The notes beneath the pieces are model-generated. The model saw only the letters and a list, made by a program, of their open reading frames with translations, was not told the origin of the DNA and ran no database searches. From contig CAVXTP010000017.1 of assembly GCA_963764715.1 (NCBI GenBank), positions 65,524 to 129,523 of the forward strand: a stretch of 64,000 bases of DNA. Direction: 5' to 3'. The first letter of the stretch is position 1; every line of letters begins with the position of its first letter. Origin of the DNA: an uncultured Acidobacteriota bacterium. GTDB taxonomy: Bacteria; Acidobacteriota; Thermoanaerobaculia; UBA5066; Gp7-AA6. This document shows positions 9,880 to 59,340 of the stretch, piece by piece. The position numbers and the translations under genes were made by a program.

Positions 9880-9880
<1 letters not shown>
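8864..9880 (+). CDS. CDP-alcohol phosphatidyltransferase with an extra ~130-aa N-terminal domain (nucleotidyltransferase-like/degenerate), similar in architecture to IPCT/DIPPS-type fusions
   Basis: GTG start overlaps the upstream stop. The C-terminal half carries the CDP-OH transferase motif D-G-x2-A-R...G-x3-D-x3-D (DGCDGELARLKFQESRSGGLLDFWGDNIVH) within several TM helices. Confidence 0.75.
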
Positions 9881-11229
<1,349 letters not shown>

Positions 11230-43821: not shown

Positions 43822-44399
43822 CGCGCGCCCTGCTCGCCGCCTTCGCCGGCGTTCTCGTGCTCGGCGCGACGCTCGCCGCGACCCTCGCGCCGTCTCCCGC
43901 TCCGACGCCCGCACCCGCCGCCGCGGCCTCGACGCCGCGCTGGAACGGCGCCGGCGCGTTCCAGAAGCCCTCGAGCGCGGAACTGCGCCGGCTGCTGACG
44001 CCCCTCCAGTTCGCCGTCACCCAGCAGGAGGGGACCGAGCGCGCGTTCTCCAACGAGTACTGGGACAACAAGCGGGCCGGGATCTACGTCGACATCGTGT
44101 CGGGCGAGCCCCTCTTCTCCTCGTTCGAGAAGTACGACTCGGGCACCGGCTGGCCGAGTTTCTGGAAGCCCCTCGAGCCCGCGAACGTGAAGGCGGGGGC
44201 CGAGATCTCCTTCATCATGCCGTATGCGGAAGTCCGGTCGGCCCACGCCGACTCCCATCTCGGCCACGTCTTCCACGACGGCCCGAAGCCGACGGGATTG
44301 CGTTACTGCATGAACTCGGCGGCGATGCGGTTCATCCCGGCCGAGGACCTCGAGAAGGAAGGCTACGGGCAGTACAGGGCGCTGTTCGAGAAGAGATAG
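43818..44399 (+). CDS. msrB: Peptide-methionine (R)-S-oxide reductase, secreted
   Basis: The GTG at 43818 overlaps the msrA stop. SelR/MsrB motifs GTGWPSF and [11 protein letters not shown] (catalytic Cys). Confidence 0.9.
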
Positions 44400-44400
44400 T

Positions 44401-44520
44401 CTCCGCCCCGGGTCGTAGGGGCGGCCCTTGTGGCCGCCCTTCGAGCGAGGGCGGGGGCAAGCCCCGCCCCGACGACGGGAGCCGCCCTTCGTCCTACGGC
44501 GACAGCCCCGGCTCGTAGTT
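44401..44520. repeat. REP-like GC-rich palindromic element cluster (third locus)
   Basis: GTCGTAGGGGCGGCCcttgtGGCCGCCCT, GGGCGGGGGCaagCCCCGCCCC, GGGAGCCGCCCTTCGTCCTACGGCG. It shares the GTAGGGGCGG core with the 11.3-kb and 12.6-kb copies. Confidence 0.7.
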
Positions 44521-45393
44521 CTCGACGAACTCGAGGAACCGGATCGTCTCGAGCATGTCCTTGCCGCGGAACCGGATCGCGTGGGCGTCGGTGCGCTCGA
44601 CGATCGGGAGGTACGCGAGGACCTCCGACGGCCGGTAGTTCTTGAAGCGGAGGTCGAGAGTCACGGGCGCCTTGACCTCGTAGACCTTCATCGCCGAAAG
44701 CCGGCCGAGCGCCGCCTTCGCGGCCGCGCGGATCCGGTCGCAGCTTGCCTCGGGCGTCAGCGTCCGGGCCGAGTGGAAGCCGGCGTTCCACTTCACGACG
44801 GCGCCCTCGATCGGCCCGAGCAGCGCCTGGGCCTCTTTCACCGCGGCGTCGTCGCCCGAGATCATCGCGACCGGAACGTGGAAGTGCCCCGCGATCGCGG
44901 CGTTGAGGCCCGCCTCCAGCACGGAGACGCCGTTGAGCCGCACGTCGGCGAGCGTCGCCGAGGACATCGTGTGCGCGCGGACGCCCTGCGGGTTGGTCGT
45001 CGACGCGTGGTAGCCGACGAAGAGGACCGCGTCGAAGCTCGCGTCGATTCCTTCCATCATCGCGAGCGGGCGCGGCCACGACCGGACGATCTGCACGTCC
45101 TTCGGGAAGCGCTCGATGAGGAGGTTTTCGCCGTTGCCGTGGGAATCGGAGACGAGGATCTCCGTCGCGCCCGCGGCCCGGGCCCCGTCGATCGCCGCCA
45201 GCACCTCGTTCGTCATGAACCCGCGGAACCGCTCGTACTCGAATCCCTGGGGGCCGAGCTGGTCGCCCGTCACGACCCCGGCGACGCCTTCCATGTCGGC
45301 CGAGATGTAGACCTTGAGCTTCGGCTGCGCGGCGGCGGGAAGCGCCGCGGCGAGAGCGAAGACGAGGGCCGCGGCGGTCCGGCCGCTCTTCAT
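44494..45393 (-). CDS. Peptidase M55 (D-aminopeptidase DppA-like), secreted
   Basis: Signal peptide then KVYISADMEGVAGV...LVSDSHGNGENL...VLFVGYHA, the DppA-family metal-binding signature. Confidence 0.75.
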   Translation of the reverse strand: MKSGRTAAALVFALAAALPAAAQPKLKVYISADMEGVAGVVTGDQLGPQGFEYERFRGFMTNEVLAAIDGARAAGATEILVSDSHGNGENLLIERFPKDVQIVRSWPRPLAMMEGIDASFDAVLFVGYHASTTNPQGVRAHTMSSATLADVRLNGVSVLEAGLNAAIAGHFHVPVAMISGDDAAVKEAQALLGPIEGAVVKWNAGFHSARTLTPEASCDRIRAAAKAALGRLSAMKVYEVKAPVTLDLRFKNYRPSEVLAYLPIVERTDAHAIRFRGKDMLETIRFLEFVENYEPGLSP

Positions 45394-46166
45394 CGGCCGC
45401 CCCCGCCGCCGACGCCCGGGGGCTCGGATTTCGCGGGCATCGCGAAGCGCGAGTCGTCGATCGGGACGTTGAGCTCGATCTTGTCGAACTTGAGCGACTG
45501 GGTCTGGTCGACGCCGGACGCCGCCGCCTCGAAGGAGTGCGGCAGCATCAGGCCCGACACGTCGCGGTAGTCGCCGATCCGGCTCCGGATCTCGACGTCG
45601 CGGCCGTCGACCGACCGCTTCGTCACGGCGAGGATCTGCAGATAGGTCTTCGCATCGAGGTACACGTCGCGGGTGTCGCCGGTCTTGCGCTTGATCCGGA
45701 GGTGCCACGCGTCGACGTCCTCCTCGATCTTCTCGCGCCCGATGACCTCGATCGTGTTGCCCTTGGCCGCGGCGTCGACGAGCGGCCCGTCGATGTCGGC
45801 CTGAAGCTCGATGTCCGCGGTCTCGGACGGCGACATCTTCTGGGGCTCGGTGACCCCGGCGAACGGCATCAGCATCCACGCGGTCTTTCCGTCGTAGGCC
45901 TGGATGGCCGTCTGCCCGTCGAAGATGAATTCCCAGCGCGTCATCGCGGGGCGCTTGATCTCGAGCGTCGTCGGCAGGGTCTCGTCGGCGAGCTTCATCT
46001 TGCCGGTCATCCGCATCGACTGGATCGACTTGATCTTCTCGAGTCCGCCGCGCGCCTGGATGCTCCGGGCGACGAGCTCGTCGGCGGTCGGTTTCTCCGT
46101 CTGCGCCGCGAGCGCCCGGGCGAGCCCCAGCGCGGCGAGGAGCGCGATCGTTCGTGTCCGTTTCAT
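45390..46166 (-). CDS. LolA-like / outer-membrane lipoprotein-sorting-fold protein, secreted
   Basis: Signal peptide MKRTRTIALLAALGLARALAAQ. About 250 aa of beta-rich sequence typical of the LolA/LppX-fold 'outer membrane lipoprotein-sorting protein' family. Weak call. Confidence 0.5.
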   Translation of the reverse strand: MKRTRTIALLAALGLARALAAQTEKPTADELVARSIQARGGLEKIKSIQSMRMTGKMKLADETLPTTLEIKRPAMTRWEFIFDGQTAIQAYDGKTAWMLMPFAGVTEPQKMSPSETADIELQADIDGPLVDAAAKGNTIEVIGREKIEEDVDAWHLRIKRKTGDTRDVYLDAKTYLQILAVTKRSVDGRDVEIRSRIGDYRDVSGLMLPHSFEAAASGVDQTQSLKFDKIELNVPIDDSRFAMPAKSEPPGVGGGGGR

Positions 46167-46258
46167 GGGGACCTCCCGTTCGCGGGGACTCTACCCCAGC
46201 GTCCCCGGGCGCGCCCGGGCCCGTCCGGCCGCGGCGCCGCGCGATAGGCTCTCGCCCC

Positions 46259-47350
46259 ATGCAATCGATCGAAGACCTCCCGACCCCTTCGGTCCTCGTC
46301 GACCTCGACGTCCTCGAGTCGAACGTCCGGGGAATGCAGGCCCGCGCCCGCGAGGCGGGACTCAAGCTGCGTCCCCACGCCAAGACGCACAAGTCGCCGG
46401 AGGTCGGGCGGCTGCAGCTCGCGGCCGGCGCCGCGGGCCTCACGCTCGCGAAGACCTCCGAGGCCGAGGTCTTCGCCTCCCTCGGGTTCGAGGACATCTT
46501 TCTGGGCTATCCGATCTACGGAGCGGACAAGGCCCGCCGACTGCTCGCGCTCGCGGACCGCATCCGGCTCGCCGTCGGCGTCGACAGCGAGGCGGGGGCG
46601 AAGAGCCTCGGCGACGTCTTCCACGCCGCCGGGCGCCGGCTCCCGGTGCGCCTCAAGATCGACTGCGGCTACCACCGGGTCGGCGTCGCCCCCGAGCAGG
46701 CCGTCGCCATGGCGCAGCGCATCGCGTCCCTGCCCGGACTGTCGTTCGCCGGCGTCTTCACGCACGGCGGGCAGGGCTACGCGGGACGGACCCCCGAGGA
46801 GGTCGCCGAGGCGGGCCACCTCGAGGGCCGCGTCGTCGCCGCCGCGGCCGAGGCGATCCGGTCCTCCGGGCTTCCGGTCGGCGAGGTCTCCCTCGGCTCG
46901 ACCCCGACGGCGCGGGCGGGCATGTCGGAGCGCGGGGTCACCGAGACGCGGCCCGGGACCTACGTCTACAACGACTTCTCGCAGGTGCAGCTCGGGAGCT
47001 GCCGGCTCGAGGACTGCGCCATGACGATCGTCGCCACCGTCGTGAGCTCTCCCGCGGCGGACCGCGCCGTCGTCGACGCCGGATCGAAGACGCTTTCGAA
47101 CGATCCCCTGCGGCCCGAGGGCCCCGGCCACGGCGCCATCCTCGGCCGCCGCAGCCGCCTCGCGCGGCTCTCCGAGGAGCACGGCGTCATCGCGGTCGAG
47201 CCCGGCGAGTCGTTCGCCGTCGGCGATCGCGTCCGCATCCTGCCCAACCACGCCTGCATCGTGTCGAACCTCCACGACCGTCTCGTCGCCGTCCGCGGCG
47301 GAAGGGTCGAAGGCTGGATCACCGTCGCGGCGCGGGGCTGCGTGCAATAG
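46259..47350 (+). CDS. Alanine-racemase-fold PLP enzyme of the D-serine deaminase / D-threonine aldolase (DSD1) family
   Basis: The N-terminus LPTPSVLVDLDVLESNVRGMQARAREAGLKLRPHAKTHKSPEV has the PLP lysine in the AKTHK motif. The C-terminal domain is typical of DSD1-like enzymes. Confidence 0.75.
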   Translation: MQSIEDLPTPSVLVDLDVLESNVRGMQARAREAGLKLRPHAKTHKSPEVGRLQLAAGAAGLTLAKTSEAEVFASLGFEDIFLGYPIYGADKARRLLALADRIRLAVGVDSEAGAKSLGDVFHAAGRRLPVRLKIDCGYHRVGVAPEQAVAMAQRIASLPGLSFAGVFTHGGQGYAGRTPEEVAEAGHLEGRVVAAAAEAIRSSGLPVGEVSLGSTPTARAGMSERGVTETRPGTYVYNDFSQVQLGSCRLEDCAMTIVATVVSSPAADRAVVDAGSKTLSNDPLRPEGPGHGAILGRRSRLARLSEEHGVIAVEPGESFAVGDRVRILPNHACIVSNLHDRLVAVRGGRVEGWITVAARGCVQ

Positions 47351-47404: not shown

Positions 47405-48013
47405 ATGATGTTCCGTACCCGGTTGCTCGCCCTCGTCCTCGCTGCCGCGGCCGCGCCGCTCGCCGCCGCCGACACCTACACCATCGACAAGAACCACTCG
47501 GACGTCAGCTTCCGCGTCCGGCACTTCGCCTCGAAGGTCCGTGGCACCTTCGGCGACTTCGAGGGGGCGATCCAGGCCGATCCCGCCAGGCCCGAGATCT
47601 CCTCGGTGGTCTTCACGATCAAGACCGCCTCGATCAACACGAACACCCCCGACCGGGACAAGCACCTCCAGTCCCCCGACTTCTTCGACGCCGCGAAGTG
47701 CCCGGAGCTGTCCTTCAAGAGCGCGAAGATCGTCCCGGCCGGGAAGGACAAGTACACGGTGACGGGCACGCTCACGATGCACTGCGTCTCGAAGGAGGTG
47801 ACCCTTCCGGTCGAGTACCTCGGAAGCACCAAAGACCCCTGGGGCAACGAGCGCGCGAGCTTCGAGGTGACGACGAAGCTGAACCGCAAGGACTGGGGCA
47901 TCAACTGGAACAAGGCGCTCGACGCGGGCGGATTCATGCTGTCCGACGACGTCGACGTCACCGTCAGCCTGGAGACGGTCAAGAAGAAGCCCGAGGCGGC
48001 CCCGGCCAAGTAG
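47405..48013 (+). CDS. YceI-family periplasmic polyisoprenoid-binding protein
   Basis: Signal peptide then YTIDKNHSDVSFRVRHF...GTFGDFEG, the hallmark YceI N-terminal signature. Confidence 0.85.
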   Translation: MMFRTRLLALVLAAAAAPLAAADTYTIDKNHSDVSFRVRHFASKVRGTFGDFEGAIQADPARPEISSVVFTIKTASINTNTPDRDKHLQSPDFFDAAKCPELSFKSAKIVPAGKDKYTVTGTLTMHCVSKEVTLPVEYLGSTKDPWGNERASFEVTTKLNRKDWGINWNKALDAGGFMLSDDVDVTVSLETVKKKPEAAPAK

Positions 48014-48030: not shown

Positions 48031-48066
48031 ATCCGAGGGCGGCCCGCGCGGCCGCCCTGCGCTTTT
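48031..48066 (+). terminator. Rho-independent terminator-like hairpin after the yceI-like gene
   Basis: GAGGGCGGCCcgcgcGGCCGCCCTgcgCTTTTCT: a GC stem followed by a T-rich tract. Confidence 0.55.
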
Positions 48067-48163
48067 CTGGACAACTTTTCCGCCCCCGAAGGGGCCCGCC
48101 TAGCATCCACAGCCCGCTCCGGACCGTACTCCGGCGGACGGAGCCAGCGGTAAAGTTCCTCTC

Positions 48164-49348
48164 ATGAAGACCTCAGTCGCAATCGTCGGGCGTCCCCGGA
48201 CCGTACGGGCCTCCGCCGTGGCGGGCTTCGCGCTCGTCCACGCCGCCGCCCTGGGCGTCATCGCCCTCGGCTTCTCCTGGCGGGGAGTCGCCCTGTGCGT
48301 GGCCTCCTATTACCTGCGGATGTTCGCGGTCACCGCGGGCTTCCACCGCTACTTCAGCCACCGGACGTTCCGCCTCGCCCGCGGGCCGCAGTTCCTGCTC
48401 GCCTTTCTCGGGCAGACCGCCGCCCAGAAGGGCGTTCTCTGGTGGGCCTCCAACCACCGCCATCACCACAAGTACTCGGACCGGCCCGAGGACATCCACA
48501 GTCCCCTCCAGCGCGGTCTCTGGTGGAGCCACATGGGCTGGATCCTGTCGCCGGACTACGTCGAGACCGACCTGTCCAGGGTCCCGGACCTGGCGAAGTA
48601 CCCGGAGCTCCGGTGGCTCGACCGGCACCAGTACGTCCCGACCGTCCTCTACGGCGTCGCGCTGGCCCTCGCGTTCGGCCCGGTGGGCCTCTTCTACGGT
48701 TACTTCCTCTCGACCGTCCTCCTGTGGCACGGCACGTTCTCGATCAACAGCCTCATGCACGTCTTCGGCCGCCGCGCCTTCGCGACGACCGACGACTCTC
48801 GCAACAGCTTCCTGCTCGCTCTCGTCACCATGGGCGAGGGCTGGCACAACAACCATCACTGGGCCCAGGGCTCGGCCGCGCAGGGGTTCCGCTGGTGGGA
48901 GATCGACGCGAGCTACTACCTCCTCTGGCTCGGAGAGAAGCTCGGCCTCGTGCACGAGCTGCACCGCCCGCCGCAGCGGTGGCGCGAGGCCGCGCTCGAG
49001 GCCGCCCGGACCGGGCGCGCCTTCACGTCGGCGAGACTCCACGTCGAGGTCAAGACCCTGACCGAGCGCTGGGCGAGAGATGCGCGCGTCCGTGCGTCTG
49101 ACGGCGCACGACGCGCTCGCCGAGCTCGAGGCGGCCCGGGTGCGCGCCGCGGTGCGGCTCGAGCACCTCCACGCCGAAGCCGCCGCCGCCGGCGCGCGGG
49201 CCGGCCGGCGTCTCGACGAGATCCACCGCGAGATCGAGAAGGCGCGCGCGATCCTCGTCGAGATCCTCCGGCGCCTCGTCGCGACCGCCGAGTCCCTGGG
49301 ACTGCCGGATCCCCAGACGGGATAGCCATGTCGCCCGGAGCCGCTTGA
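48164..49348 (+). CDS. Acyl-CoA (delta-9-type) fatty-acid desaturase, membrane-bound di-iron. The 3' end has an apparent frame switch after ~49075.
   Basis: Histidine boxes HRYFSH, HRHHH, HNNHH and typical TM segments. After ...LTERWAR the called frame becomes Arg/Pro/Gly-rich junk with poor GC3, while the +1 frame (49080..49325) is strongly coding. Confidence 0.75.
   Translation: MKTSVAIVGRPRTVRASAVAGFALVHAAALGVIALGFSWRGVALCVASYYLRMFAVTAGFHRYFSHRTFRLARGPQFLLAFLGQTAAQKGVLWWASNHRHHHKYSDRPEDIHSPLQRGLWWSHMGWILSPDYVETDLSRVPDLAKYPELRWLDRHQYVPTVLYGVALALAFGPVGLFYGYFLSTVLLWHGTFSINSLMHVFGRRAFATTDDSRNSFLLALVTMGEGWHNNHHWAQGSAAQGFRWWEIDASYYLLWLGEKLGLVHELHRPPQRWREAALEAARTGRAFTSARLHVEVKTLTERWARDARVRASDGARRARRARGGPGARRGAARAPPRRSRRRRRAGRPASRRDPPRDREGARDPRRDPPAPRRDRRVPGTAGSPDGIAMSPGAA
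49080..49325 (+). CDS. Small coiled-coil ORF (81 aa). It is either the true C-terminal tail of the desaturase, reached by a frameshift, or a separate small protein.
   Basis: Almost all third-codon positions are G/C and the amino-acid composition is balanced (MRASVRLTAHDALAELEAARV...IHREIEKARAILVEILRRL...). It overlaps the non-coding-looking tail of the desaturase frame. Confidence 0.4.
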   Translation: MRASVRLTAHDALAELEAARVRAAVRLEHLHAEAAAAGARAGRRLDEIHREIEKARAILVEILRRLVATAESLGLPDPQTG

Positions 49349-50595
49349 GTCGCATCGCCGTCATCGGCTCCGGGATCTCCGGTCTTTCCGCCGCGTACTT
49401 TCTGTCGCGCCGGCACTCCGTCACGCTCTTCGAGCGGGAGGAGCGCCTGGGCGGCCACACGCACACGCACCGGGTCCAGGCGCCCGAGGGCATCCTTCCC
49501 GTCGACACCGGGTTCATCGTCCACAACCCGCGCAACTACCCGAAGCTCTCGCGCCTCCTGCGCGAGCTCTCCGTCGAGACCCAGCCAAGCGACATGTCCT
49601 TCTCGGTTTCCTCCGGCGGGGACGGACCCGACTGGTCGAGCCGCGAGCCGCTCCGCCTCGCGCTTCGCTCGGCCAACCTCCTCGACCGCGCCTGGCGGGG
49701 CTTTCTCCCCGAGATCGCGCGGTTCAACCGCCGCGCGCCGTGCCTGCTCGACGAGCCTGCTCCCGATCGCCTGACGCTCTCCGAGTACCTGACGCGGGAG
49801 CGCTTCGGAAAGCGCTTCCGGGACCACTATCTCTACCCGCTCGCGGCCTCGGTCTGGTCGGCCTCGGCCGACCGGATGGACGACTTCCCCGCGGCGACGG
49901 TCGTGCGTTTCTTCAAGAACCACGGCTTCCTCGGATTCTTCACGCAGAGCCCGTGGCGGTCGATCCGCGGCGGAAGCGCCTCGTACATCCCGCCCCTGAC
50001 TGCCCCGTTCCGGGAGCGCATCCGCCTCGCGGCGCCGATCGAGCGGGTCGTGCGGGACGCGCGCGGCGTCACGGTCCGCGCGCGCGGCCTCGCCGACGAG
50101 CGCTTCGACGAGGTGGTCTTCGCCTGCCACGGCGACCAGGTGCTCCCGATGCTCGCCGACCCGACCCCCGCGGAGACGAGCGTCTTCTCCGTCTTCAAGA
50201 CGAGCGCGAACGAGGCCAGGCTCCACACCGACACTTCGGTGCTGCCCCGCCGGCGGCGGGCCTGGGCGTCGTGGAACTTCCGGCGGTCCAGGGCGCAGGA
50301 CGGCCGCCTCTCCGTCACGTACCACATGAACCGGCTCCAGGCGCTGCCGACCGCGACGGACTACTGCGTCAGCCTGAACGCGAACGGCGAGGTCGACTCT
50401 TCGCGCCTTCTCGCCCGCATGGAGTACCGCCATCCGCTTTTCACCCGCGAGTCCGCCGCGGCCCAGAGGCGCTGGGCCGAGGTGTCCGGAGTCTTCCGCA
50501 CCCACTACTGCGGGGCGTACTGGGGACACGGCTTCCACGAGGACGGGCTCGTCTCGGCCCTCGCCGTGGCCGGGCGCCTGGGAGTCGCCTGGTGA
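49345..50595 (+). CDS. FAD/NAD(P)-binding amine-oxidase-like oxidoreductase (cfa-cluster associated; UfaD-like fatty-acyl desaturase candidate)
   Basis: TTG start. N-terminal dinucleotide-binding motif IAVIGSGISGLSAAYFL...LFEREERLGGHTHT. About 416 aa. Confidence 0.8.
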   Translation: MSRIAVIGSGISGLSAAYFLSRRHSVTLFEREERLGGHTHTHRVQAPEGILPVDTGFIVHNPRNYPKLSRLLRELSVETQPSDMSFSVSSGGDGPDWSSREPLRLALRSANLLDRAWRGFLPEIARFNRRAPCLLDEPAPDRLTLSEYLTRERFGKRFRDHYLYPLAASVWSASADRMDDFPAATVVRFFKNHGFLGFFTQSPWRSIRGGSASYIPPLTAPFRERIRLAAPIERVVRDARGVTVRARGLADERFDEVVFACHGDQVLPMLADPTPAETSVFSVFKTSANEARLHTDTSVLPRRRRAWASWNFRRSRAQDGRLSVTYHMNRLQALPTATDYCVSLNANGEVDSSRLLARMEYRHPLFTRESAAAQRRWAEVSGVFRTHYCGAYWGHGFHEDGLVSALAVAGRLGVAW

Positions 50596-51374
50596 GCGCG
50601 GCGCTCCCCACGCCCGCCTTGTACCGTGGAACGCTCCGGCACCGCCGGTTCGCGCCGAAGCTCCACGCCTTCACCTATCCCGTCTTCATGGTCTTCCTGG
50701 ACGTCGACCGCATCGCGGAGCTCTCCCGCGTCTCGCCGTTTCTCTCGGTCAACCGCTGGAACTGGGCGAGCTTCGACGACCGCGACCACCTGGGCGCCCC
50801 GGGGCGCCGACTGCGCGACCGGCTCGCCGACAGCGCGGCCGAGCGGGGCCTGCGGCTTCCCGACGGGCCCATCTTCCTCCTCACGAACCTGCGCTATCTC
50901 GGATACTGTTTCAATCCGGTCTCGTACTTCTACTGCTACGACGGGGCCGGGGAGCTTTCGCTCGTGATGGCGGAAGTCAGCAACACGTTCGGGGAGATGC
51001 ACCCGTACTGGCTCGACGGATCCCTCGAGACCCGCACGGGCGCCGGCCGGCACTACGACTTCGACAAGGCCTTCCACGTGTCCCCGTTCATGCCGATGGA
51101 TTGCCGCTACCGGTTCGGGTTCACCGACCCCGGCGACTCGCTCGTCGTGCAGGTCTCCGAGTGGAGGGCCGCCGACCTGTTCTTCGACGCGACGCTCCGG
51201 CTCCAGCGCGAGCCGTGGGGCGCCGCGGCGCTGCATCGGGCGCTGTGGCGGCACCCGTGGATGACGCTGAAGGTGATCGCCGCGATTCACTGGCAGGCGC
51301 TGCGGCTCTGGGTCAAACGGGTTCCGGTCTTCACGCACCCGAAAAGACTCGACGGGAAGGAGGGCGCGCCATGA
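50592..51374 (+). CDS. DUF1365-family protein (cfa-cluster associated; UfaO-like candidate)
   Basis: The GTG at 50592 overlaps the upstream stop. ...YRGTLRHRRFAPKLHAFTYPVFMVFLDVD...LTNLRYLGYCFNPVSYFYCYD... is characteristic of DUF1365. Confidence 0.75.
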   Translation: MSAALPTPALYRGTLRHRRFAPKLHAFTYPVFMVFLDVDRIAELSRVSPFLSVNRWNWASFDDRDHLGAPGRRLRDRLADSAAERGLRLPDGPIFLLTNLRYLGYCFNPVSYFYCYDGAGELSLVMAEVSNTFGEMHPYWLDGSLETRTGAGRHYDFDKAFHVSPFMPMDCRYRFGFTDPGDSLVVQVSEWRAADLFFDATLRLQREPWGAAALHRALWRHPWMTLKVIAAIHWQALRLWVKRVPVFTHPKRLDGKEGAP

Positions 51375-52603
51375 GCGTTTCTCGCAATCTCTTCCTCCGC
51401 GGTCTCGAGCGGATCGCCGATGGCCGGCTCGAGGTGCGGCTTCCCGGCGGCCGCGTACGGGAGTTCGGCGACCCCGCCTCGGATCTCCACGCGACAGTCG
51501 AGATCCGCGACGAAGCGGCATTTGCCCGGTTCGTGTTCGGCGGCGACATCGCCTTCGGCGAGGCCTACGCGGAGGGGCTCTGGTCCTCGCCGGATCTGCC
51601 GTCGGTCGTGCGCCTGGCGGTCCGCAACATTGCCGCCTTCGACGCCGGCAACCGCGCGACCGCCGCCCTCTCGCGCTGGGCGGCGCGCCTGCGGCACTGG
51701 CTGCGCCGCAATACCGTCTCCGGCAGCCGCCTCAACATCTCGTATCACTACGACCTCGGGACCGACTTCTACTCGCTCTTCCTCGACCCGACGCTGACGT
51801 ACTCGTGCGGGCTCTTCGAGAGGCCGGGCCTCTCGCTCGAGGAGGCCCAGGTTGCGAAGTTCGACCGCATCGCGCAGATGCTCGAGCTCGCGCCGGGGGA
51901 CCGGCTCGTCGAGATCGGCTCGGGCTGGGGCTCCTTCGCTCTGCACGCCGCCCGCCGCTACGGCTGCCGGGTCACGACGACGACGATCAGCCGTTCCCAG
52001 TACGACCACGTCCGCGACCGGCTCGCTCGCGAGGACGGGGGCGGACAGGTAGAGCTCCTCTTCGAGGACTACCGCCAGCTGACCGGCCGGTATGACAAGG
52101 CCGTTTCGATCGAGATGTTCGAGGCGGTCGGCCTCGCCTATTACGACGACTACTTCCGCGCCGTCGACCGGCTGCTCGAGCCCGGCGGGACGATGCTGCT
52201 GCAGACGATCTGGATCAACGAGGAGCGGTTCCCGCGCTACCACGCCCAGCCCGACTTCATCCAGCGCCACGTCTTCCCCGGCAGCGAGCTCGCGTCGATC
52301 GGGCAAATCCGCCGGTCGCTCGCACGGGCCACGACGCTTTCCGTCGCCGCGCTCGAGGAGATCGGGCTCCACTACGTTTCGACGCTCACCGCCTGGCGCC
52401 AGGCCTTCCTCGCCCACCGCGACAGGGTCCGCGCCCTCGGCTTCCCCGAGACGTTCGTGCGCCTGTGGGACTACTACCTCGCCTACTGCCAGGGGGCGTT
52501 CGCGGAGCGGTACATCGGCGACGCGCAGATCCTCCTCGCGAAGGTGGCGGCGCCGGCCGGCCGGGCCGCGGTCCGCTCCGGGGCGGCGGGAGCGAAGGCG
52601 TGA
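51371..52603 (+). CDS. Cyclopropane-fatty-acyl-phospholipid synthase-family SAM-dependent methyltransferase (copy 1)
   Basis: ...YSCGLFE...LELAPGDRLVEIGSGWGSFALHAARRYGCRVTTTTIS..., the CFA synthase fold signature, and a C-terminal WDYYLAYCQGAF. Confidence 0.85.
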   Translation: MSVSRNLFLRGLERIADGRLEVRLPGGRVREFGDPASDLHATVEIRDEAAFARFVFGGDIAFGEAYAEGLWSSPDLPSVVRLAVRNIAAFDAGNRATAALSRWAARLRHWLRRNTVSGSRLNISYHYDLGTDFYSLFLDPTLTYSCGLFERPGLSLEEAQVAKFDRIAQMLELAPGDRLVEIGSGWGSFALHAARRYGCRVTTTTISRSQYDHVRDRLAREDGGGQVELLFEDYRQLTGRYDKAVSIEMFEAVGLAYYDDYFRAVDRLLEPGGTMLLQTIWINEERFPRYHAQPDFIQRHVFPGSELASIGQIRRSLARATTLSVAALEEIGLHYVSTLTAWRQAFLAHRDRVRALGFPETFVRLWDYYLAYCQGAFAERYIGDAQILLAKVAAPAGRAAVRSGAAGAKA

Positions 52604-52932
52604 AGACCGCGCTCATCGCCCTCTTCGGGGCCATCCTCGCCGGCATGCTCGCGGTCACCGGCTGGGCGAGCCTGCGCATCCCGATCTGGAAGGCGGGCCC
52701 GGACATCTCGGACCCCTGGTCGCTCGCGACGCTCGCCGACGCCTACGCCGGGTTCCTCACCTTCTTCGTCTGGGTCGCGTACCGGGAGTCGAAGCTCGCC
52801 GCCAGGGCCCTGTGGTTCGTCCTCATCATGGCCCTGGGCAACATCGCGATGTCGATCTATGTCCTTCGGGAGCTCCTGCAGCTCGCGCCGGGCGAGCCGC
52901 CCTCGCGCCTGCTCGAGAAGCGCCGCGCATGA
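52600..52932 (+). CDS. Small membrane protein (DUF1475-like), operon member
   Basis: The GTG overlaps the upstream stop. 110 aa with 3 TM segments. Confidence 0.45.
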   Translation: MKTALIALFGAILAGMLAVTGWASLRIPIWKAGPDISDPWSLATLADAYAGFLTFFVWVAYRESKLAARALWFVLIMALGNIAMSIYVLRELLQLAPGEPPSRLLEKRRA

Positions 52933-53447
52933 GCCTCCGGGAATTCCTCCGCTCGTGGATCGCCGCGCCGATCCGCGAGCAGCTCACGCAGGGCCTCTCG
53001 CCCGAAAAGATCGCCCTGACGATCGGCGTGGGCCTGGCGATCGCCGTCATCCCGGTCGTCGGCGTGACGACGGTCATGAGCTTCCTCGCCGCCTGGGCGC
53101 TCCGGCTCAACCAGCCCATCATCCAGACGATCAACTGGTCCTCGTATGCGCTCCAGCTGCTGATGATCTTCCCCTTCATCCGCCTGGGCGAGAAGCTCTT
53201 CCGCGCGCCGCGCCTCCGTCTCTCCCTCGACGAGCTCGTCGCGATGGGCAAGGCCGATCCTCTCGGGACGCTGTCGCGCCTCGGCTCGACGATCGGGCAC
53301 GCGGTCGTCGCCTGGGCGCTCGTCGCGCCGCTGATCGTGGCCGCCGCGTACTACGGGACCCGACCCGCGCTGCGCGCCCTGTCCCGCCGGCTCGCGCCGC
53401 CGGCCGCGAGGCCGGACGACGCCAGGGGAGTGGACGATGTGGCGTGA
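52929..53447 (+). CDS. DUF2062-family membrane protein, operon member
   Basis: The ATG overlaps the upstream stop. ...LSPEKIALTIGVGLAIAVIPVVGVTTVMSFLAAWALRLNQP... is typical of DUF2062. Confidence 0.55.
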   Translation: MSLREFLRSWIAAPIREQLTQGLSPEKIALTIGVGLAIAVIPVVGVTTVMSFLAAWALRLNQPIIQTINWSSYALQLLMIFPFIRLGEKLFRAPRLRLSLDELVAMGKADPLGTLSRLGSTIGHAVVAWALVAPLIVAAAYYGTRPALRALSRRLAPPAARPDDARGVDDVA

Positions 53448-54222
53448 GGCCGCCGCGCTCGCCCTCTGGGGCGCCCTCCTCGTGACGGCGGTCATGTTCG
53501 CCGCCTGGGCCGCGCACTTGAAGGCCCGGAACGCCGGCGTCGTCGACGTCGCCTGGTCGGCCAACATCGCGCTCCTCGCCGTGCTGTACGCGGCGCTGGG
53601 ACCGGGGCTTGTGCTGCGGCGCGTCCTCGTCGCGCTCATGGGCGGCGTCTCCGGCTTGCGTCTGGCATGGCACATCCACGCCCGCGGGCACGGCAAGCCC
53701 GAGGACGGCCGCTATGCGACCCTGCGAAAGGAGTGGGGCGGGAACGTCGAGGTGAAGTTCCTCTTCTTCTTCCTCTTCCAGGGACTCCTCGATCTCGTCC
53801 TCGGAATCCCGTTCCTCTTCGCCTCGCTCGACGAATCCGCTCCGGTCTCGCCTCTCGCATGGGCCGGCGTCGCGCTGTGGTGCGTCGCCGTCACCGGCGA
53901 GACGACGGCCGACCGGCAGCTCGAGCGTTTCAAGTCGGACCCGGCCAACAAGGGCCGGACGTGCCGCGCCGGCCTCTGGCGGTTCTCGCGCCACCCCAAT
54001 TACTTCTTCGAGTGGCTCGTGTGGGTCGCCTGGGCCGTCTTCGCGCTCGCCTCGCCCGGCGGGTGGCTCGCGCTCGTCTGCCCGGCCCTGATGCTGTTCT
54101 TCCTGCTGCGGGTCACCGGCATCCCCGCGACCGAAGCCCAGGCCCTGAAGTCCCGCGGCGACGACTACCGCGACTACCAGCGCACGACGTCGGCGTTCGT
54201 GCCGTGGCTCCCGAAAGCATGA
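53437..54222 (+). CDS. DUF1295 / steroid-5-alpha-reductase-ICMT-like membrane protein, operon member
   Basis: ...GLWRFSRHPNYFFEWLVWVAWAV... is the conserved C-terminal motif of the DUF1295/ICMT-like family. Confidence 0.7.
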   Translation: MWREAAALALWGALLVTAVMFAAWAAHLKARNAGVVDVAWSANIALLAVLYAALGPGLVLRRVLVALMGGVSGLRLAWHIHARGHGKPEDGRYATLRKEWGGNVEVKFLFFFLFQGLLDLVLGIPFLFASLDESAPVSPLAWAGVALWCVAVTGETTADRQLERFKSDPANKGRTCRAGLWRFSRHPNYFFEWLVWVAWAVFALASPGGWLALVCPALMLFFLLRVTGIPATEAQALKSRGDDYRDYQRTTSAFVPWLPKA

Positions 54223-55271
54223 GCGCCCGGGCGAAGCTCGAGATTCCGGCCGCGGGCCTCGTCGAGCGGGGCCTCGTCCCGGACGCCATCCTGCGCCTGG
54301 CGATCCGGCGCCTCCTCGCCGCGCGACTCCGCGAGGAAGACGCCGGAGACCCCGAGGCCGCGCGCCGCCGCACCGACGCGTTCGCCGCGAGGATGCGGGA
54401 GAGCCCGATCGCCATCGCGACTTCCGACGCCAACGCCCAGCACTACGAGGTCCCGCCGCGGCTCTTCGAGCTCGTCCTCGGGAAACGCATGAAGTACAGC
54501 TGCGGTCTCTACGAGAGCACGACGGTGACGCTCGACGAGGCCGAGGAGGCGATGCTCGCCCTGACGGGCGCCCGGGCGCAGCTCCAGGACGGCCAGGAGG
54601 TCCTCGAGCTCGGCTGCGGCTGGGGCTCGCTCACCCTCTGGATGGCGGAGCGGTTTCCGCGTTCCAGGATCACGGCCGTCTCCAACTCCCGCGACCAGCG
54701 CGGATTCATCGAGATGCGCGCCCGGGAGCGCGGCCTCTCGAACGTCACGATCGCGACGGCGGACATGAACGTGTTCGACCCCGGCCGGACGTTCGATCGG
54801 ATCGTGTCCGTCGAAATGTTCGAGCACATGCGCAACTGGCCGAAGCTGCTCGAGCGGATCGCCTTCTGGATGCGCCCCGACGCGCGTCTCTTCCTGCACG
54901 TCTTCTCCCACCGGGCGGTCGCCTACCCCTTCGACGTGCGGGACGCCTCCGACTGGATGGCGCGCGAATTCTTCACCGGGGGGCTCATGCCCTCCGACGA
55001 CCTGCTCGACCGGTTCCCGGACCACGTCCGGATCGAGGCGCGCTGGCAGGTCGACGGCACCCACTACCAGCGAACCGCCGAGGACTGGCTCGCGAACCTC
55101 GACGCCCGGCGCGACGAGGCCCTCGCGCTCTTCGCCGCGACGTACGGAGAGACCGAAGCGCGCGCGCGGCTCGCGGCCTGGCGCCTCTTCTTCCTCGCCT
55201 GCGCCGAGTGCTGGGGCTACCGCGGCGGAACGGAGTGGATCGTCTCGCACTACCGGCTGCGCCGGTCCTGA
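54219..55271 (+). CDS. Cyclopropane-fatty-acyl-phospholipid synthase-family SAM-dependent methyltransferase (copy 2)
   Basis: ...MKYSCGLYE...VLELGCGWGSLTLWMAERFPRSRITAVSNS... and a C-terminal ...WRLFFLACAECWGY. Confidence 0.85.
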   Translation: MSARAKLEIPAAGLVERGLVPDAILRLAIRRLLAARLREEDAGDPEAARRRTDAFAARMRESPIAIATSDANAQHYEVPPRLFELVLGKRMKYSCGLYESTTVTLDEAEEAMLALTGARAQLQDGQEVLELGCGWGSLTLWMAERFPRSRITAVSNSRDQRGFIEMRARERGLSNVTIATADMNVFDPGRTFDRIVSVEMFEHMRNWPKLLERIAFWMRPDARLFLHVFSHRAVAYPFDVRDASDWMAREFFTGGLMPSDDLLDRFPDHVRIEARWQVDGTHYQRTAEDWLANLDARRDEALALFAATYGETEARARLAAWRLFFLACAECWGYRGGTEWIVSHYRLRRS

Positions 55272-55288
55272 GGTAGCCTGCCCGGAGA

Positions 55289-56206
55289 GTGAACCTCCCC
55301 ACGCCGCTCGAGGCGGCGCCGGCGGAGCTCGCCGGCGGCCGGCCCCTGGACTTGAAGCGCGAGGACGCGCACGAGCTCGGCGCGTTCAAGTGGCGCGGAG
55401 CGCTGCCCACGGTCGAGGCGTACAAGCGGCAGGGCGCCTCGGCCGTCGTCACCGCCTCGACCGGGAACCACGGGGCCGCGGTCGCCTGGGCCTCGCGGCG
55501 GCTGGGCCTGCGCGCGATGGTCTACGCGCCCGCGGGCGCTTCGCTCGCGAAGCTCGCGCTGATCGACTCGCTCGGCGCCGAGATCCGGCTCATCGGCACC
55601 GACCTCGACTTCGCCAAGGACGAGGGCAAGCGCTTCGCGGCCGAAGCCCGGCTTCCCTTCTTCGAGGACGGCGTCGAGCCCACGCAGTACCAGGGATACG
55701 GGGCGATCGCCGACGAGATCCTCGACCAGGGCACAGAGCCGCCGGCCGCCGTCGTCGTGCCGGTCGGCAACGGCGCGCTGATCGGCGGGATCGGCCGGAC
55801 CCTGAAGCGCCGCTCCCCCGCGACGTCCCTCGTCGGCGTCGCCGCGAAGGAGGCGCCGGTCATGGCGCTGTCCCACCGGGCGGGCCGCGCCGTCGAGAGC
55901 GACCGCATGGGGACCTTCGCCGACGGCCTCGCGGTCCGCGTCGCGATCCCCGAGGCGGTCGAGCTCGTCAACGGGGTCGTCGACCGGATGCTCCTGGTGT
56001 CCGAGCGGTCCATGGCGGAAGCGATCGGCGCGTTTCACCGTGCCGGAATTCGCGCCGAGGGCGCCGCCGCCGCGGGCCTCGCCGCGCTGCCTCAGCTTCC
56101 GCTTCCGGTCGACGTGGGACGGATCGTCCTCGTCGTCACCGGCCGCAACATCGACGAGGCTCTCCACCGCCGCGCCGTCGAGGACCCCGGCTCCTTCCCG
56201 GACTGA
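55289..56206 (+). CDS. PLP-dependent (tryptophan-synthase-beta-fold, PALP) enzyme, threonine/serine dehydratase-like
   Basis: GTG start. ...EDAHELGAFKWRGALPTV...VTASTGNHGAAVAWA... (PLP lysine in FKWRG, glycine-rich loop). Confidence 0.7.
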   Translation: MNLPTPLEAAPAELAGGRPLDLKREDAHELGAFKWRGALPTVEAYKRQGASAVVTASTGNHGAAVAWASRRLGLRAMVYAPAGASLAKLALIDSLGAEIRLIGTDLDFAKDEGKRFAAEARLPFFEDGVEPTQYQGYGAIADEILDQGTEPPAAVVVPVGNGALIGGIGRTLKRRSPATSLVGVAAKEAPVMALSHRAGRAVESDRMGTFADGLAVRVAIPEAVELVNGVVDRMLLVSERSMAEAIGAFHRAGIRAEGAAAAGLAALPQLPLPVDVGRIVLVVTGRNIDEALHRRAVEDPGSFPD

Positions 56207-56224
56207 GCCCGTCTTCGGCCCCGG

Positions 56225-56259
56225 CTTACTGCTTACCGCTTACCGCTTACCGCTTACTG
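56225..56259. repeat. Heptanucleotide tandem repeat array (CTTACYG)x5, inverted partner of the array at 59375-59438
   Basis: cttactg cttaccg cttaccg cttaccg cttactg, in the gap between two convergent genes. The last unit overlaps the amidase stop codon. Confidence 0.9.
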
Positions 56260-57878
56260 ACCCTCAAATCCACCGTCGGCAGATACCGCGGCGGCCGCCG
56301 CACCTTCGTCGCCTGCTCGAACGCGTAGGCGATCTTCAGGAGCGTCGGCTCGCTGCCGGCCCGGCCGAAGAACGACAGCCCGACCGGCAGCCCGAAGTGC
56401 CAGCCCGCGGGCACGGTGATGTCGGGATAGCCGGCGATCGCCGGGATCGACGAGCTCCCGTCGGCGCCGTAGCCGCCGTTGACGAGGTCGATCAGCGACG
56501 CGGGGCCCGAGGTCGGCGCGACGAGGCAGTCGAGACGATGTTCGTCCATGGTCTTGTCGATGCCCTCGACGCGCGACAGCCGGAGGTCCTTGGCGAGCGC
56601 GTCGACGTAGGCCTTGTCCGTCAGCGGGCCCTTGGCTTCCGCCTTCTCGAAGATCTCCTGCCCGAAGTACGGCATCTCGCTCTCGCGGTTCTTCGCGTTG
56701 AAGAGGATCAGGTCCGAGAGCGTCCGGTACCGCGTCCGGGAGCCGAGCCCCGCGAGATGGGCGTTGAGGTCCGCCTTGAACTCGTAAAGGAGCACTTCGA
56801 ATTCGGACTCGCCGATCTCGCCCGCCGATGCGATGTCGGCCGGGTCCACGATGACGGCGCCCTCCCGCCGCATGACCGCGAGGGCATCCTCGGCGACGGC
56901 GTCGGCCGCCGGGCTCTGCCCGTAGAGCTTTTTGCGCGGCACGCCGATGCGGGCGCCGGCGAGGCCGCGGGGATCGAGGAAGGTCGCGTAGTCGATCGGC
57001 GCCCTCCCGGCGAGGTCGCGTGTCGCCGGGTCCGCCGGATCGAAGCCGCACATCGCGGTCAGCAGGATCGCGGCGTCGGCGACGGTGCGGGTCATCGGGC
57101 CGGCGGTGTCCTGGCTGTGCGCGATGGGGATGATCCCGCTCCGCGACACGAGGCCGAGCGTCGGTTTCAGCCCGACGAGGCCGCAGTTGTTGGACGGCGA
57201 GACGATCGAGCCGTCGGTCTCCGTCCCGATCGTGATCGCGCAGAGGCTCGCCGCCGCCGCGGCCCCCGAGCCCGAGCTCGAGCCCGACGGATCGCGGTCG
57301 AGGGCGTACGGGTTGCGGCACTGCCCGCCGCGGCCGCTCCAGCCGCTCTGGGAGTGCGTCGAGCGGAAGTTGGCCCACTCCGAGAGGTTCGTCTTGCCGA
57401 GGATCACCGCGCCCGCGTCGCGCAGCCGCTGGACGATGTGGGCGTCCTTCTCGGGAACCGCTCCGACGAGGGCGAGCGAGCCGGCCGTCGTCTGCATGCG
57501 GTCGGCGGTCCCGATGTTGTCCTTGATCAGCACGGGGATCCCGTGGAGGGGCCCGCGGACCTTGCCGGCCTTGCGCTCGGCGTCGAGGCGGTCGGCGATC
57601 GCCAGGGCGTCGGGGTTCACCTCGAGGACCGCCCGCAGCGTCGGGCCCTTCCGGTCGATCGCCTCGATGCGCGCGATGTACTTCTCGGCGAGCGTGCGGG
57701 CGGAGTCCGCGCCCGAGGCCAGCCGCTTCTGGAGATCGGCGACCGTCAGCTCGTCGAGCTCGCCCGCCGGCGGCGGCGGAGGGTCGGCCGGCGGCGGCCC
57801 CGCCGCAGCGTTGCGGGAGACCGCCGCGGCGGCGCCTCCCAGGACTCCGCTCTTCAACAGGGACCGGCGATCGATCAT
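56247..57878 (-). CDS. Amidase-signature family amidase, Tat/Sec-secreted
   Basis: N-terminal twin-arginine-like signal MIDRRSLLKSGVLGGAAAA and an AS signature region ...GGSSSGSGAAAAASLCAITIGTETDGSIVSPS... (Ser-cisSer-Lys triad context). Confidence 0.85.
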   Translation of the reverse strand: MIDRRSLLKSGVLGGAAAAVSRNAAAGPPPADPPPPPAGELDELTVADLQKRLASGADSARTLAEKYIARIEAIDRKGPTLRAVLEVNPDALAIADRLDAERKAGKVRGPLHGIPVLIKDNIGTADRMQTTAGSLALVGAVPEKDAHIVQRLRDAGAVILGKTNLSEWANFRSTHSQSGWSGRGGQCRNPYALDRDPSGSSSGSGAAAAASLCAITIGTETDGSIVSPSNNCGLVGLKPTLGLVSRSGIIPIAHSQDTAGPMTRTVADAAILLTAMCGFDPADPATRDLAGRAPIDYATFLDPRGLAGARIGVPRKKLYGQSPAADAVAEDALAVMRREGAVIVDPADIASAGEIGESEFEVLLYEFKADLNAHLAGLGSRTRYRTLSDLILFNAKNRESEMPYFGQEIFEKAEAKGPLTDKAYVDALAKDLRLSRVEGIDKTMDEHRLDCLVAPTSGPASLIDLVNGGYGADGSSSIPAIAGYPDITVPAGWHFGLPVGLSFFGRAGSEPTLLKIAYAFEQATKVRRPPRYLPTVDLRVSKR

Positions 57879-57933: not shown

Positions 57934-59340
57934 TCAGAAGAGGTGCGCGATCGAGTTGGCGTAGTAGCGCAGCAGCGGCACCTCGTCCGGGCGGGCGCGG
58001 AAGAGGCCGCCGGCCTCCTCGACGAGGCGGCGCAGCGTCAGCATGCGGAGGCCCACCGTGATCGCGTAGTCCTGGTCGCCCCGCGGGACGTAGACGTGGG
58101 CCCCCCGCCCCTCGAGCTCCCGGATCAGCCGCAGCACCTCGCCCTTGAGCTCGAGCTCGCTCCAGCTCCGCTCCGGCGCCCGCACGAAGACCGTCGCGAC
58201 GAGCGAGACCGGGACGACCGGGATGACCCGCGCGATCTCCCCCATCAGCTCCCGCGCCAGGTCCGACAGGCGCCGGGAGCGCTCCTCTCCCGCGAGGGAG
58301 CGAAAGTCGAACGCGTGGCGCTGGAGGTGGCGCCGGAGCGAAACGGGCGAGCCGAAGTTCACGCACGCGTAGCCGAACCGGTGCCAGCGATTGAGGGCCC
58401 TCAGCCAGACGTTGCGGCCGATGAACCGCGCCGTCGTCCCCGCCGCGGCCGGCGCGCTCCGGGGAGAGGCCTCCGGGTCGAGCTCGCGCAGGAAGCTGCG
58501 GTCCTCGAACGTCCGGTCGTAGTTGATGCCGACCGGGATGAAGACGATGTCGCGCTCCCCCGCCGGGTCGAACGACCGGACCATGTAGTCGAGGATGCCG
58601 AGCCTGGGCGGCCGCAGCTTCCCGTCGCGCGAGAGGCCGCCCTCCGGGAAGACCGCCTGCGTCACGCCCGCCGCGGTGGCCATCCCGACGTAACGCTCGA
58701 GGACCTTGCGGTAAAGGGGGTCCTTCGAGTTGCGCCGCACGAAGTACGCGCCCATCGAGCGGATCAGCGTCTGCAGCGGCCAGATGCGCGCCCACTCGCC
58801 GACGGCGTAGGAGAGCGCGGCCTTCTCCGCCGCGAGATACGAGACGAGGACGTAGTCCATGTTGCTGCGGTGGTTGATGAGGAAGACGACCGTCGCCTTC
58901 GGAGGCATCGACGCGAGGCCTTCCTCGTCCTCGTAGCCGAGGCGCACCCGGTAGAGCGAGCGCGCCAGGTTGCGGGCGAGCCAGTAGCCGATGCGGAAGT
59001 AGGCGTACGCGTTGAAGGCCGGGACGATCTCGCGCGCGTAGCGGCCGACGCGCTGCATGACGACCTCGCGCGGCATCGCCTTCTCCCTCGCCTCGGCCTC
59101 CGCGGCCTGCTGCACCTGGGGGTCGTAGAGCAGGCGGTCGATCAGGACCTCGCGCTTCGTCAGCTCGAAGTGCGCGATGCGGATCTTCAGGCGGGTGTTG
59201 ATCTCCTCGAGGACCCGGTTGACCCGGCGCCGGAGAAACCACCGGACGCTCGGGATGAGCAGCCGGTCGAGGGCGGCCCACGCCGCGAGGATCGCGAGCA
59301 GGATGGCGAGCCAGGTCGGAAGCTCGACGGTGCCGCGCAT
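57934..59340 (-). CDS. Glycerolipid acyltransferase (PlsB/PlsC-like lysophospholipid acyltransferase family; HxxxxD motif)
   Basis: Start ATG at 59340 (MRGTVELPTWLAILLAILAAW...). H(X4)D motif VFLINHRSNMDYVL plus a downstream FPEGG motif. The longer 513-aa track ORF translates the non-coding heptamer array. Confidence 0.75.
   Translation of the reverse strand: MRGTVELPTWLAILLAILAAWAALDRLLIPSVRWFLRRRVNRVLEEINTRLKIRIAHFELTKREVLIDRLLYDPQVQQAAEAEAREKAMPREVVMQRVGRYAREIVPAFNAYAYFRIGYWLARNLARSLYRVRLGYEDEEGLASMPPKATVVFLINHRSNMDYVLVSYLAAEKAALSYAVGEWARIWPLQTLIRSMGAYFVRRNSKDPLYRKVLERYVGMATAAGVTQAVFPEGGLSRDGKLRPPRLGILDYMVRSFDPAGERDIVFIPVGINYDRTFEDRSFLRELDPEASPRSAPAAAGTTARFIGRNVWLRALNRWHRFGYACVNFGSPVSLRRHLQRHAFDFRSLAGEERSRRLSDLARELMGEIARVIPVVPVSLVATVFVRAPERSWSELELKGEVLRLIRELEGRGAHVYVPRGDQDYAITVGLRMLTLRRLVEEAGGLFRARPDEVPLLRYYANSIAHLF

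Follow-up and report, generated by a model that had tools for sequence, protein, structure and literature searches.

An acidobacterial desaturase and methylase operon related to the furan fatty acid gene clusters of Proteobacteria

A 64-kb stretch of DNA from an uncultured member of the Acidobacteriota (contig CAVXTP010000017.1), hereafter the window, carries on its forward strand a tightly packed operon encoding a fatty acid desaturase, an FAD-dependent oxidoreductase, a DUF1365 protein, two methyltransferases and three further membrane proteins. By its gene families and their order, the locus appears to be a well-preserved representative, in the Acidobacteriota, of the known cluster of the Ufa, or furan fatty acid (FuFA), type, in an extended form shared with Proteobacteria, Planctomycetes and Geothrix. 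The window has a G+C content of ~70%, and raw lists of open reading frames (ORFs) are consequently crowded with spurious frames; genes were called by the periodicity of third-position GC content (GC3) and identified with Pfam and NCBIfam. GC3 periodicity singled out one series of forward-strand genes at 48164-56206, eight of which, as delimited by GC3 and Pfam, occupy positions 48164-55271:

48164-49325 in the conserved frame (to 49348 as read), forward strand: membrane delta-9-type fatty acid desaturase (Pfam FA_desaturase)
49345-50595, forward strand: UfaD-like FAD-dependent oxidoreductase (Pfam Amino_oxidase and NAD_binding_8), TTG start
50592-51374, forward strand: UfaO-like DUF1365 protein (Pfam DUF1365, 2.3e-84)
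51371-52603, forward strand: S-adenosylmethionine (SAM) methyltransferase 1 (MT1) of the cyclopropane fatty acid (CFA) synthase family, 410 amino acids (Pfam CMAS, 6.6e-82)
52600-52932, forward strand: small membrane protein 1 (sm1), DUF1475-like, 110 amino acids (Pfam DUF1475, 2.7e-10)
52929-53447, forward strand: small membrane protein 2 (sm2), DUF2062, 172 amino acids (Pfam DUF2062, 1.8e-12)
53437-54222, forward strand: DUF1295 polytopic membrane protein (Pfam DUF1295, 4e-68)
54219-55271, forward strand: CMAS-like SAM methyltransferase 2 (MT2), 350 amino acids, best match in the PDB 6gkv

All seven genes listed in the preliminary description, as well as the adjoining desaturase, were thus recovered by GC3 periodicity and Pfam. 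That description treated the interval as a seven-gene operon joined by overlaps of 1-4 nucleotides. Seven such genes are indeed present; however, position 48164 is the start of the desaturase, which the interval therefore includes along with the seven. Of the six junctions between the FAD gene and MT2, five are overlaps of 4 nucleotides, namely, GTGA at FAD/DUF1365 (50592-50595) and MT1/sm1, and ATGA at DUF1365/MT1, sm1/sm2 and DUF1295/MT2, whereas the sm2/DUF1295 overlap is longer than had been stated (11 nucleotides). The seven genes downstream of the desaturase are intact, with GC3 values of 0.92-0.96. This arrangement suggests that the seven genes from FAD through MT2 are translationally coupled and that all eight would be transcribed from a leader located 3' of the terminator of the preceding yceI gene.

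The three genes following the desaturase correspond to the core of the known pathway. The FAD enzyme starts at a TTG codon directly 5' of its N-terminal GxGxxG motif, matches Amino_oxidase (4e-20) and NAD_binding_8 (3e-17) in Pfam, and finds its best PDB match over its full length in LkcE (1e-48). It fits the profile of UfaD, a NAD/FAD-binding protein of ~420-430 amino acids with an amine-oxidase/phytoene-desaturase-like fold. The DUF1365 protein comprises the full-length domain (PF07103; residues 10-251 of 260), and a sequence search found no solved relative. Its AlphaFold2 (AF2) model (predicted local distance difference test score, pLDDT, 92) is a mostly-beta barrel with weak matches to FABP-like and nitrobindin barrels, which fits a lipid-binding enzyme of a not-yet-characterised fold. 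MT1 is most similar among solved structures to CFA synthases (7qos and 6bqc; 1e-47 to 1e-51), and its NCBIfam scores stay under the equivalog cutoffs set for true CFA synthases (272 versus 600 and 253 versus 400). It has the ~400 amino acids expected of the CFA-synthase-family protein UfaM. The desaturase retains all three histidine boxes (HRYFSH, HRHHH and HNNHH) in its translation and matches Pfam FA_desaturase (PF00487, 3e-16), with a score below the NCBIfam DesA equivalog cutoff (84 versus 400 bits). These features identify it as a putative DesA/stearoyl-CoA-desaturase-like enzyme of the membrane delta-9 type.

The remaining four genes constitute a second module, in which the small membrane proteins accompany MT2. 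The sm1 protein, with ~3 predicted transmembrane segments, is a single-repeat DUF1475-like protein. This gene adjoins the MT2 homologue in a Steroidobacteraceae metagenome-assembled genome (MAG; L040), where it overlaps the start of the MT2 gene, and in Geothrix (L044), and stands beside the cluster of a Planctomycetes MAG (L041); that is, it travels with MT2. The DUF1475-like family counts 554 representatives, mostly of ~110 amino acids, along with some two-repeat proteins of 215-310 amino acids. The sm2 gene (DUF2062) is present in every Acidobacteriota locus carrying MT2. For the DUF1295 protein, Pfam ranks DUF1295 (4e-68) ahead of Steroid_dh (3e-9) and ICMT (1e-4). Its AF2 model (pLDDT 94) retrieves with Foldseek, as top matches, 4quv, 7bw1 and 7c83, an NADPH-dependent sterol C14 reductase and two steroid 5-alpha-reductases (probability 1.0, TM-score 0.5-0.57), with ICMT ranking lower. 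The invariant residues D159, N188 and E192 align with positions 164, 193 and 197 of SRD5A2 in a weak profile match (E 0.33, versus 0.037 for ICMT), and plain sequence comparison cannot separate the likeness of the protein to the reductases from that to ICMT. A role as a methyltransferase was considered and set aside, the ICMT matches being weaker than those to reductases in both Pfam and the fold search. Given this ranking, DUF1295 is read as a membrane C=C reductase-like protein, and we infer an NAD(P)H-dependent enzyme acting on lipid.

MT2 is only distantly related to MT1 (28% identity). Its best PDB match is coclaurine N-methyltransferase (CNMT; 6gkv, 2.9e-70), with 38% identity over 336 columns and full-length coverage, compared with 5e-22 for CFA synthases, and its NCBIfam CFA synthase score is below the cutoff (137 versus 400). 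The DUF1295-linked homologues in Proteobacteria and Planctomycetes are 49-63% identical to MT2. A further protein, P0012 (611 amino acids; 11 member sequences), is a predicted fusion of DUF1295 with a CMAS-like methylase that is 75% identical to MT2.

The biochemical reference points for these assignments come from Rhodobacter sphaeroides and Rhodopseudomonas palustris. UfaM (Q3J4I7) methylates cis-vaccenate on phospholipids, UfaD (RSP1091, Q3IYV7), an FAD enzyme resembling phytoene desaturases, makes a conjugated diene, and the DUF1365 protein UfaO (RSP1090, Q3IYV8) uses O2 to yield the monomethyl FuFA; in R. sphaeroides, the last two steps need both UfaD and UfaO, and these two suffice for them (Lemke et al., 2020; PMC7380195). 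R. palustris carries ufaD-ufaO-ufaM as one contiguous run (RPA2571-2569), and the window has the same order of FAD enzyme, DUF1365 protein and CFA-like methylase with the same tight linkage. The UfaM/UfaD/UfaO-like pathway proposed in the preliminary description is thereby supported at the level of families and synteny. R. palustris also has a second, distantly related SAM methylase, comparable to MT2: FufM (RPA0924, Q6NBA4), which is 26% identical to UfaM and adds the second methyl (PMC7380195). FufM is reported to be 37.9% identical to LIME1 (AT4G33110), a CNMT-like protein of Arabidopsis (PMC10940516). MT2 appears to belong to the CNMT/LIME1 branch and hence, indirectly, to that of FufM, the connection being bridged via CNMT/LIME1 and not by an alignment of MT2 with FufM. 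The proposal that a second methylase and a membrane enzyme tailor the lipid tail further finds support, although DUF1295 looks more like a reductase than like ICMT. Furthermore, the deletion primers in the supplement of Lemke et al. reveal an ATGA overlap between RPA0923 and RPA0924, like that of DUF1295 and MT2 in the window; exact-pattern metagenome scans with the primer-derived RPA0923/0924 junction and start gave 0 matches and 13 chance matches, and no homologue.

The R. sphaeroides and R. palustris systems are O2-dependent and act on phospholipid acyl chains (PMC7380195), and the same would hold for the window operon. There are differences as well. Unlike either, the window joins the desaturase, the FufM-type methylase, DUF1295, DUF1475-like and DUF2062 genes into one operon. 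Compared with the RSP1091-1087 operon and the separate ufaM (RSP2144) of R. sphaeroides, the window lacks a nearby rpoE-chrR pair, and no counterparts of RSP1087 and RSP1088 were identified.

To what extent the arrangement is shared was assessed by searching the DUF1365 protein against one genome per species, which gave 39 loci, nearly all from Acidobacteriota MAGs, the best relatives being 86-90% identical; all window proteins were then mapped onto these loci. Gene order is conserved far beyond chance. The FAD gene lies directly 5' of DUF1365 in all 39 loci, and four close MAGs match the window in gene order from yceI on the 5' side to the dehydratase gene on the 3' side. In about ten Acidobacteriaceae/Terriglobia MAGs, these genes fall into two divergently oriented blocks, one with the DUF1475-like, DUF2062, DUF1295 and MT2 genes and the other with desaturase, FAD, DUF1365 and MT1, and the remaining loci have only FAD-DUF1365-MT1, with a more distant DUF1295 gene several kb away. 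Co-occurrence was counted in the 31 loci with sufficient flanking DNA: a DesA-like desaturase is present in 13 of the 14 loci with MT2 versus two of the 17 without it. One locus without a membrane desaturase (L023) has a soluble acyl-ACP-type desaturase (PF03405; 12057-13049, forward strand) directly after the CFA-like gene, and such replacement of the membrane type suggests that the cluster tends to bring its own double-bond source. DUF2177 and DUF1722/2-thiouracil-desulfurase-like genes also lie near this locus. An in-frame read-through of FAD into DUF1365 (8750-10810, forward strand, 686 amino acids) occurs in a single genome, L007; as it is probably due to an indel in a long-read MAG, it was given no weight as Rosetta-stone evidence for a functional link.

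The same gene set extends well beyond the MAGs of this phylum. In Geothrix sp. PMB-07 (CP132333.1, within 2,934,531-2,955,334), a cultured bacterium of a different class (Holophagae), the order desaturase-FAD-DUF1365-CMAS-DUF1475-DUF2062-DUF1295-MT2 is identical to that of the window, with the same short overlaps and 42-63% identity, and a two-component system takes the 5' position occupied by yceI in the window. Plasmid pYUSHP14-1 of Acinetobacter sp. SH20PTE14 (L043) carries a desaturase, FAD enzyme, DUF1365 protein, CFA-family methylase, DUF1295 protein and class I SAM methyltransferase in the same order (33-49% identity), without the two small membrane proteins and flanked by lipocalin and cryptochrome/photolyase genes. 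The Planctomycetes MAG encodes DUF1295, MT2, desaturase, FAD, DUF1365, CMAS and DUF2878 proteins, with the DUF1475-like gene alongside and, in the same cluster, an FAD_binding_4 protein. In Shinella, DUF1295-MT2 directly follows the genes for an extracytoplasmic function (ECF) sigma factor and a ChrR anti-sigma factor (rpoE-chrR). The gene set is thus widespread, being neither restricted to one phylum nor limited to uncultured organisms. Its presence in cultured Geothrix, Planctomycetes and an Acinetobacter plasmid means that the novelty implied by the preliminary description was overstated.

Taken together, homology and gene linkage, from which all of the following steps are drawn, make it probable that the locus is the acidobacterial form of a photo-oxidative-stress cluster producing mono- or dimethyl FuFA on membrane phospholipids. 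The DesA-like desaturase would use O2 to place a cis double bond in a phospholipid-bound saturated acyl chain, and MT1, acting like UfaM, would move a methyl group from SAM onto this double bond to give a methyl-branched trans-monoene. The UfaD-like FAD enzyme would then add a second, conjugated double bond, and the resulting conjugated diene would be the substrate of the UfaO-like DUF1365 protein, predicted to insert oxygen from O2 and close the furan ring. Finally, MT2, as a candidate FufM/LIME1-type enzyme, would add the second ring methyl, converting the monomethyl to the dimethyl FuFA; sm1 and sm2 make up a conserved sub-module together with MT2.

Several observations weigh against this assignment. 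The position of MT1 corresponds not only to that of R. palustris UfaM (RPA2569) but also to that of R. sphaeroides RSP1089, a CFA-like protein that is dispensable for FuFA formation (PMC7380195), so that MT1 may be something other than a UfaM-type enzyme. The roles of the DUF1295, DUF1475-like and DUF2062 proteins are not accounted for by the known furan pathway, neither CarH/LitR nor ECF sigma/ChrR genes were found within the window, the literature searched contains no paper combining Acidobacteria with FuFA, and the desaturase gene carries a +1 frameshift. The main alternative, which we consider unlikely, is that the product is a mid-chain methyl-branched or cyclopropane fatty acid and no furan is made: MT1 would add a methyl group to the double bond or turn it into a cyclopropane ring, and DUF1295 would reduce the remaining or exocyclic C=C, as in tuberculostearic acid-type chemistry. 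The dispensability of RSP1089 is compatible with such a product, as are the true CFA synthases that are the nearest solved relatives of MT1 and the C=C-reductase-like fold of DUF1295, which could saturate a double bond. The FAD_binding_4 protein of the Planctomycetes cluster points in the same direction, this family serving 10-methyl fatty acid reduction in Actinobacteria. However, the FAD and DUF1365 genes, whose products, in the two species tested, serve diene and furan formation specifically, are universal to the cluster, intact and translationally coupled, and MT1 scores under the CFA synthase cutoffs. Considerably less probable is a non-acyl substrate, such as a polyprenoid, hopanoid, carotenoid or quinone, with the likeness to the Ufa proteins holding only at the family level. 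Points in its favour are the weak similarity of the FAD enzyme to HpnE, to phytoene desaturases and to protoporphyrinogen oxidase, the likeness of DUF1295 to reductases of sterols and steroids, the alkaloid-methylating activity of the best solved relatives of MT2, and a YceI-family gene just upstream, YceI proteins being polyisoprenoid binders. Yet a fatty acid desaturase is tied to the cluster in many lineages, with a second desaturase type in others, yceI is cut off by a terminator and linked to the operon in the window clade only, and the scanned parts of the window contain no isoprenoid biosynthesis genes.

The frameshift raises the question of whether this genome contains a decaying or inactive copy of the operon, with the desaturase a pseudogene and the pathway deprived of its substrate. 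Within the ORF as read (48164-49348), the GC3 phase switches near 49000, and near 49074, in the C-terminal tail, the gene contains one base more than its four close homologues. In L001, L032 and L003, the desaturase continues in a single frame into a conserved coiled-coil tail and stops ~20 nucleotides before the FAD gene, whereas in the window this tail of ~85 amino acids is thrown out of frame. In the conserved frame, the stop codon lies at 49323-49325, 19 nucleotides 5' of the FAD start, so that the TTGA at which desaturase and FAD seem to overlap is an artefact of the frameshift. The insertion relative to L001, L032 and L003 is what speaks for decay. Against it, the lesion falls 3' of all three histidine boxes, within a tail that is absent from Terriglobia homologues (for instance, a 274-amino-acid protein in L007), so that catalysis is probably unaffected, and the seven downstream genes are intact. 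Furthermore, the nearest MAG, L002, contains many indels of the assembly-error type, which makes a sequencing or assembly artefact a plausible origin of the extra base; in this region (49060-49090 in the window), L002 has a stop/indel pair a few bases 5' of the extra base. We therefore regard decay of the operon as very improbable.

An additional role can be imagined for the module of the DUF1475-like, DUF2062, DUF1295 and MT2 genes as a membrane maintenance branch in which DUF1295 regenerates oxidised furan lipid. Steroid 5-alpha-reductases reduce alpha,beta-unsaturated ketones. A FuFA that trapped singlet oxygen or radicals would become an enedione (dioxoene), which DUF1295 could reduce with NADPH to a saturated 1,4-diketone that would re-cyclise to the furan. 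This idea, which derives from chemical reasoning, appears improbable to us; if true, furan lipids would be a regenerable, catalytic antioxidant instead of a sacrificial one.

Upstream, the operon is separated from its neighbour by a short leader, and a further gene follows closely downstream. The flanking features are as follows:

47405-48013, forward strand: YceI-family gene adjoining the operon on its 5' side, linked in the window clade only
48036-48058, forward strand: intrinsic-terminator-like hairpin directly after the yceI stop, with a 9-bp stem including 8 G-C pairs, followed by TTTTCT
48068-48108, forward strand: conserved leader element TGGACAAC-N25-CTAG(C/G)ATCC within the 150-nucleotide leader
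55289-56206, forward strand: Ser/Thr-dehydratase-family, pyridoxal phosphate-dependent enzyme (Pfam PALP), 18 nucleotides 3' of MT2

The hairpin and T-run end yceI, placing the beginning of the operon in the 150-nucleotide leader. No sigma-70 consensus and no Rfam family (in a search for riboswitches) were found in this leader. The element TGGACAAC-N25-CTAG(C/G)ATCC precedes the desaturase in the window clade (L001, L002, L003 and L032) and in no other loci, and is a candidate promoter or operator.

In related systems, such gene sets are under light or singlet-oxygen control. A homologous cluster in Pseudomonas is light-inducible through LitR-family regulators (PMC9758184), and in Chlamydomonas singlet oxygen co-induces genes for CFA1, the CNMT-like CFA2, DUF1365, DUF1295 and DUF2177 proteins within the SAK1 regulon (PMC4067076); the R. 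sphaeroides cluster has been published as part of the singlet-oxygen sigmaE regulon. Across the LitR/CarH and sigmaE-ChrR regulons (Pseudomonas, Shinella and Chlamydomonas SAK1), CFA-like, CNMT-like, DUF1365, DUF1295 and DUF2177 genes are co-regulated or co-located. Consistently, a divergently oriented CarH/LitR-type gene, encoding a MerR-type helix-turn-helix and two B12-binding domains (for example, L007 6821-7747, reverse strand), flanks the core in 25 of the 31 related Acidobacteriota loci. Such a regulator also lies beside the core in one Acidimicrobiia MAG (L017), and DUF2177 and DUF1722 genes sometimes accompany the CarH/LitR-flanked core. Light or singlet-oxygen control is therefore likely for the cluster family. 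Beside the window copy, the regulator is absent: tblastn with the CarH/LitR protein of L007 found no match in the window, and Pfam searches of ~30 neighbouring genes yielded no ECF sigma, ChrR, photolyase or carotenoid genes, so that for this copy such regulation is only a possibility. Unlike the LitR/CarH and sigmaE-ChrR systems, the window clade shows its own conserved leader motif. A pair of methionine sulfoxide reductase genes with overlapping stop and start, msrA-msrB (43207-44399, forward strand), lies 4 kb 5' of the operon and is kept in the window clade (L001, L002 and L032); we count it in favour of the photo-oxidative-stress reading.

FuFA protect other bacteria against damage by light and oxygen. 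If the product is confirmed, these lipids would join the repertoire of the Acidobacteriota, among the most abundant soil phyla, and non-phototrophic soil bacteria would be seen to invest in a dedicated membrane antioxidant system that depends on O2 and is often under B12/light control. The preliminary description had called the product unknown in this phylum, in agreement with the literature, in which we likewise found no paper linking Acidobacteria with CarH/LitR; the phylum-level statement is thus new but incremental, extending the current picture of the pathway without changing it. As Geothrix sp. PMB-07 is cultured, the claim is directly testable. With its own desaturase and both methylases, the compact eight-gene operon could also be used as a convenient, self-contained unit for making dimethyl FuFA in other hosts, and its gene neighbourhood is well suited to working out what three widespread families, DUF1295, DUF1475 and DUF2062, do.

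The PALP gene, for which all NCBIfam dehydratase families score under cutoff, was considered as a pathway member; being a Ser/Thr-dehydratase-family gene that adjoins the operon in the window clade only, it is treated as a passenger, which it probably is, possibly co-transcribed with the operon. The flanks at 44494-47350 and 55289-57878 have a flavour of amino acid catabolism, with genes for an M55 D-aminopeptidase, a 3-hydroxy-D-aspartate-aldolase-like protein of the alanine-racemase fold, a Ser/Thr-dehydratase-family protein and an amidase; a 258-amino-acid protein at 45390-46166 (reverse strand) has no Pfam match. A PlsB-like glycerol-3-phosphate acyltransferase gene (57934-59340, reverse strand) is kept beside the operon in the window clade, its product having only 468 amino acids and matching approximately the central 430 residues of the 800-residue PlsB models. 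Farther downstream, a class I SAM methyltransferase of 258 amino acids (60696-61472, forward strand) with a weak CMAS match (5e-9) adjoins genes for a GNAT acetyltransferase and an ArsR/MarR-type regulator.

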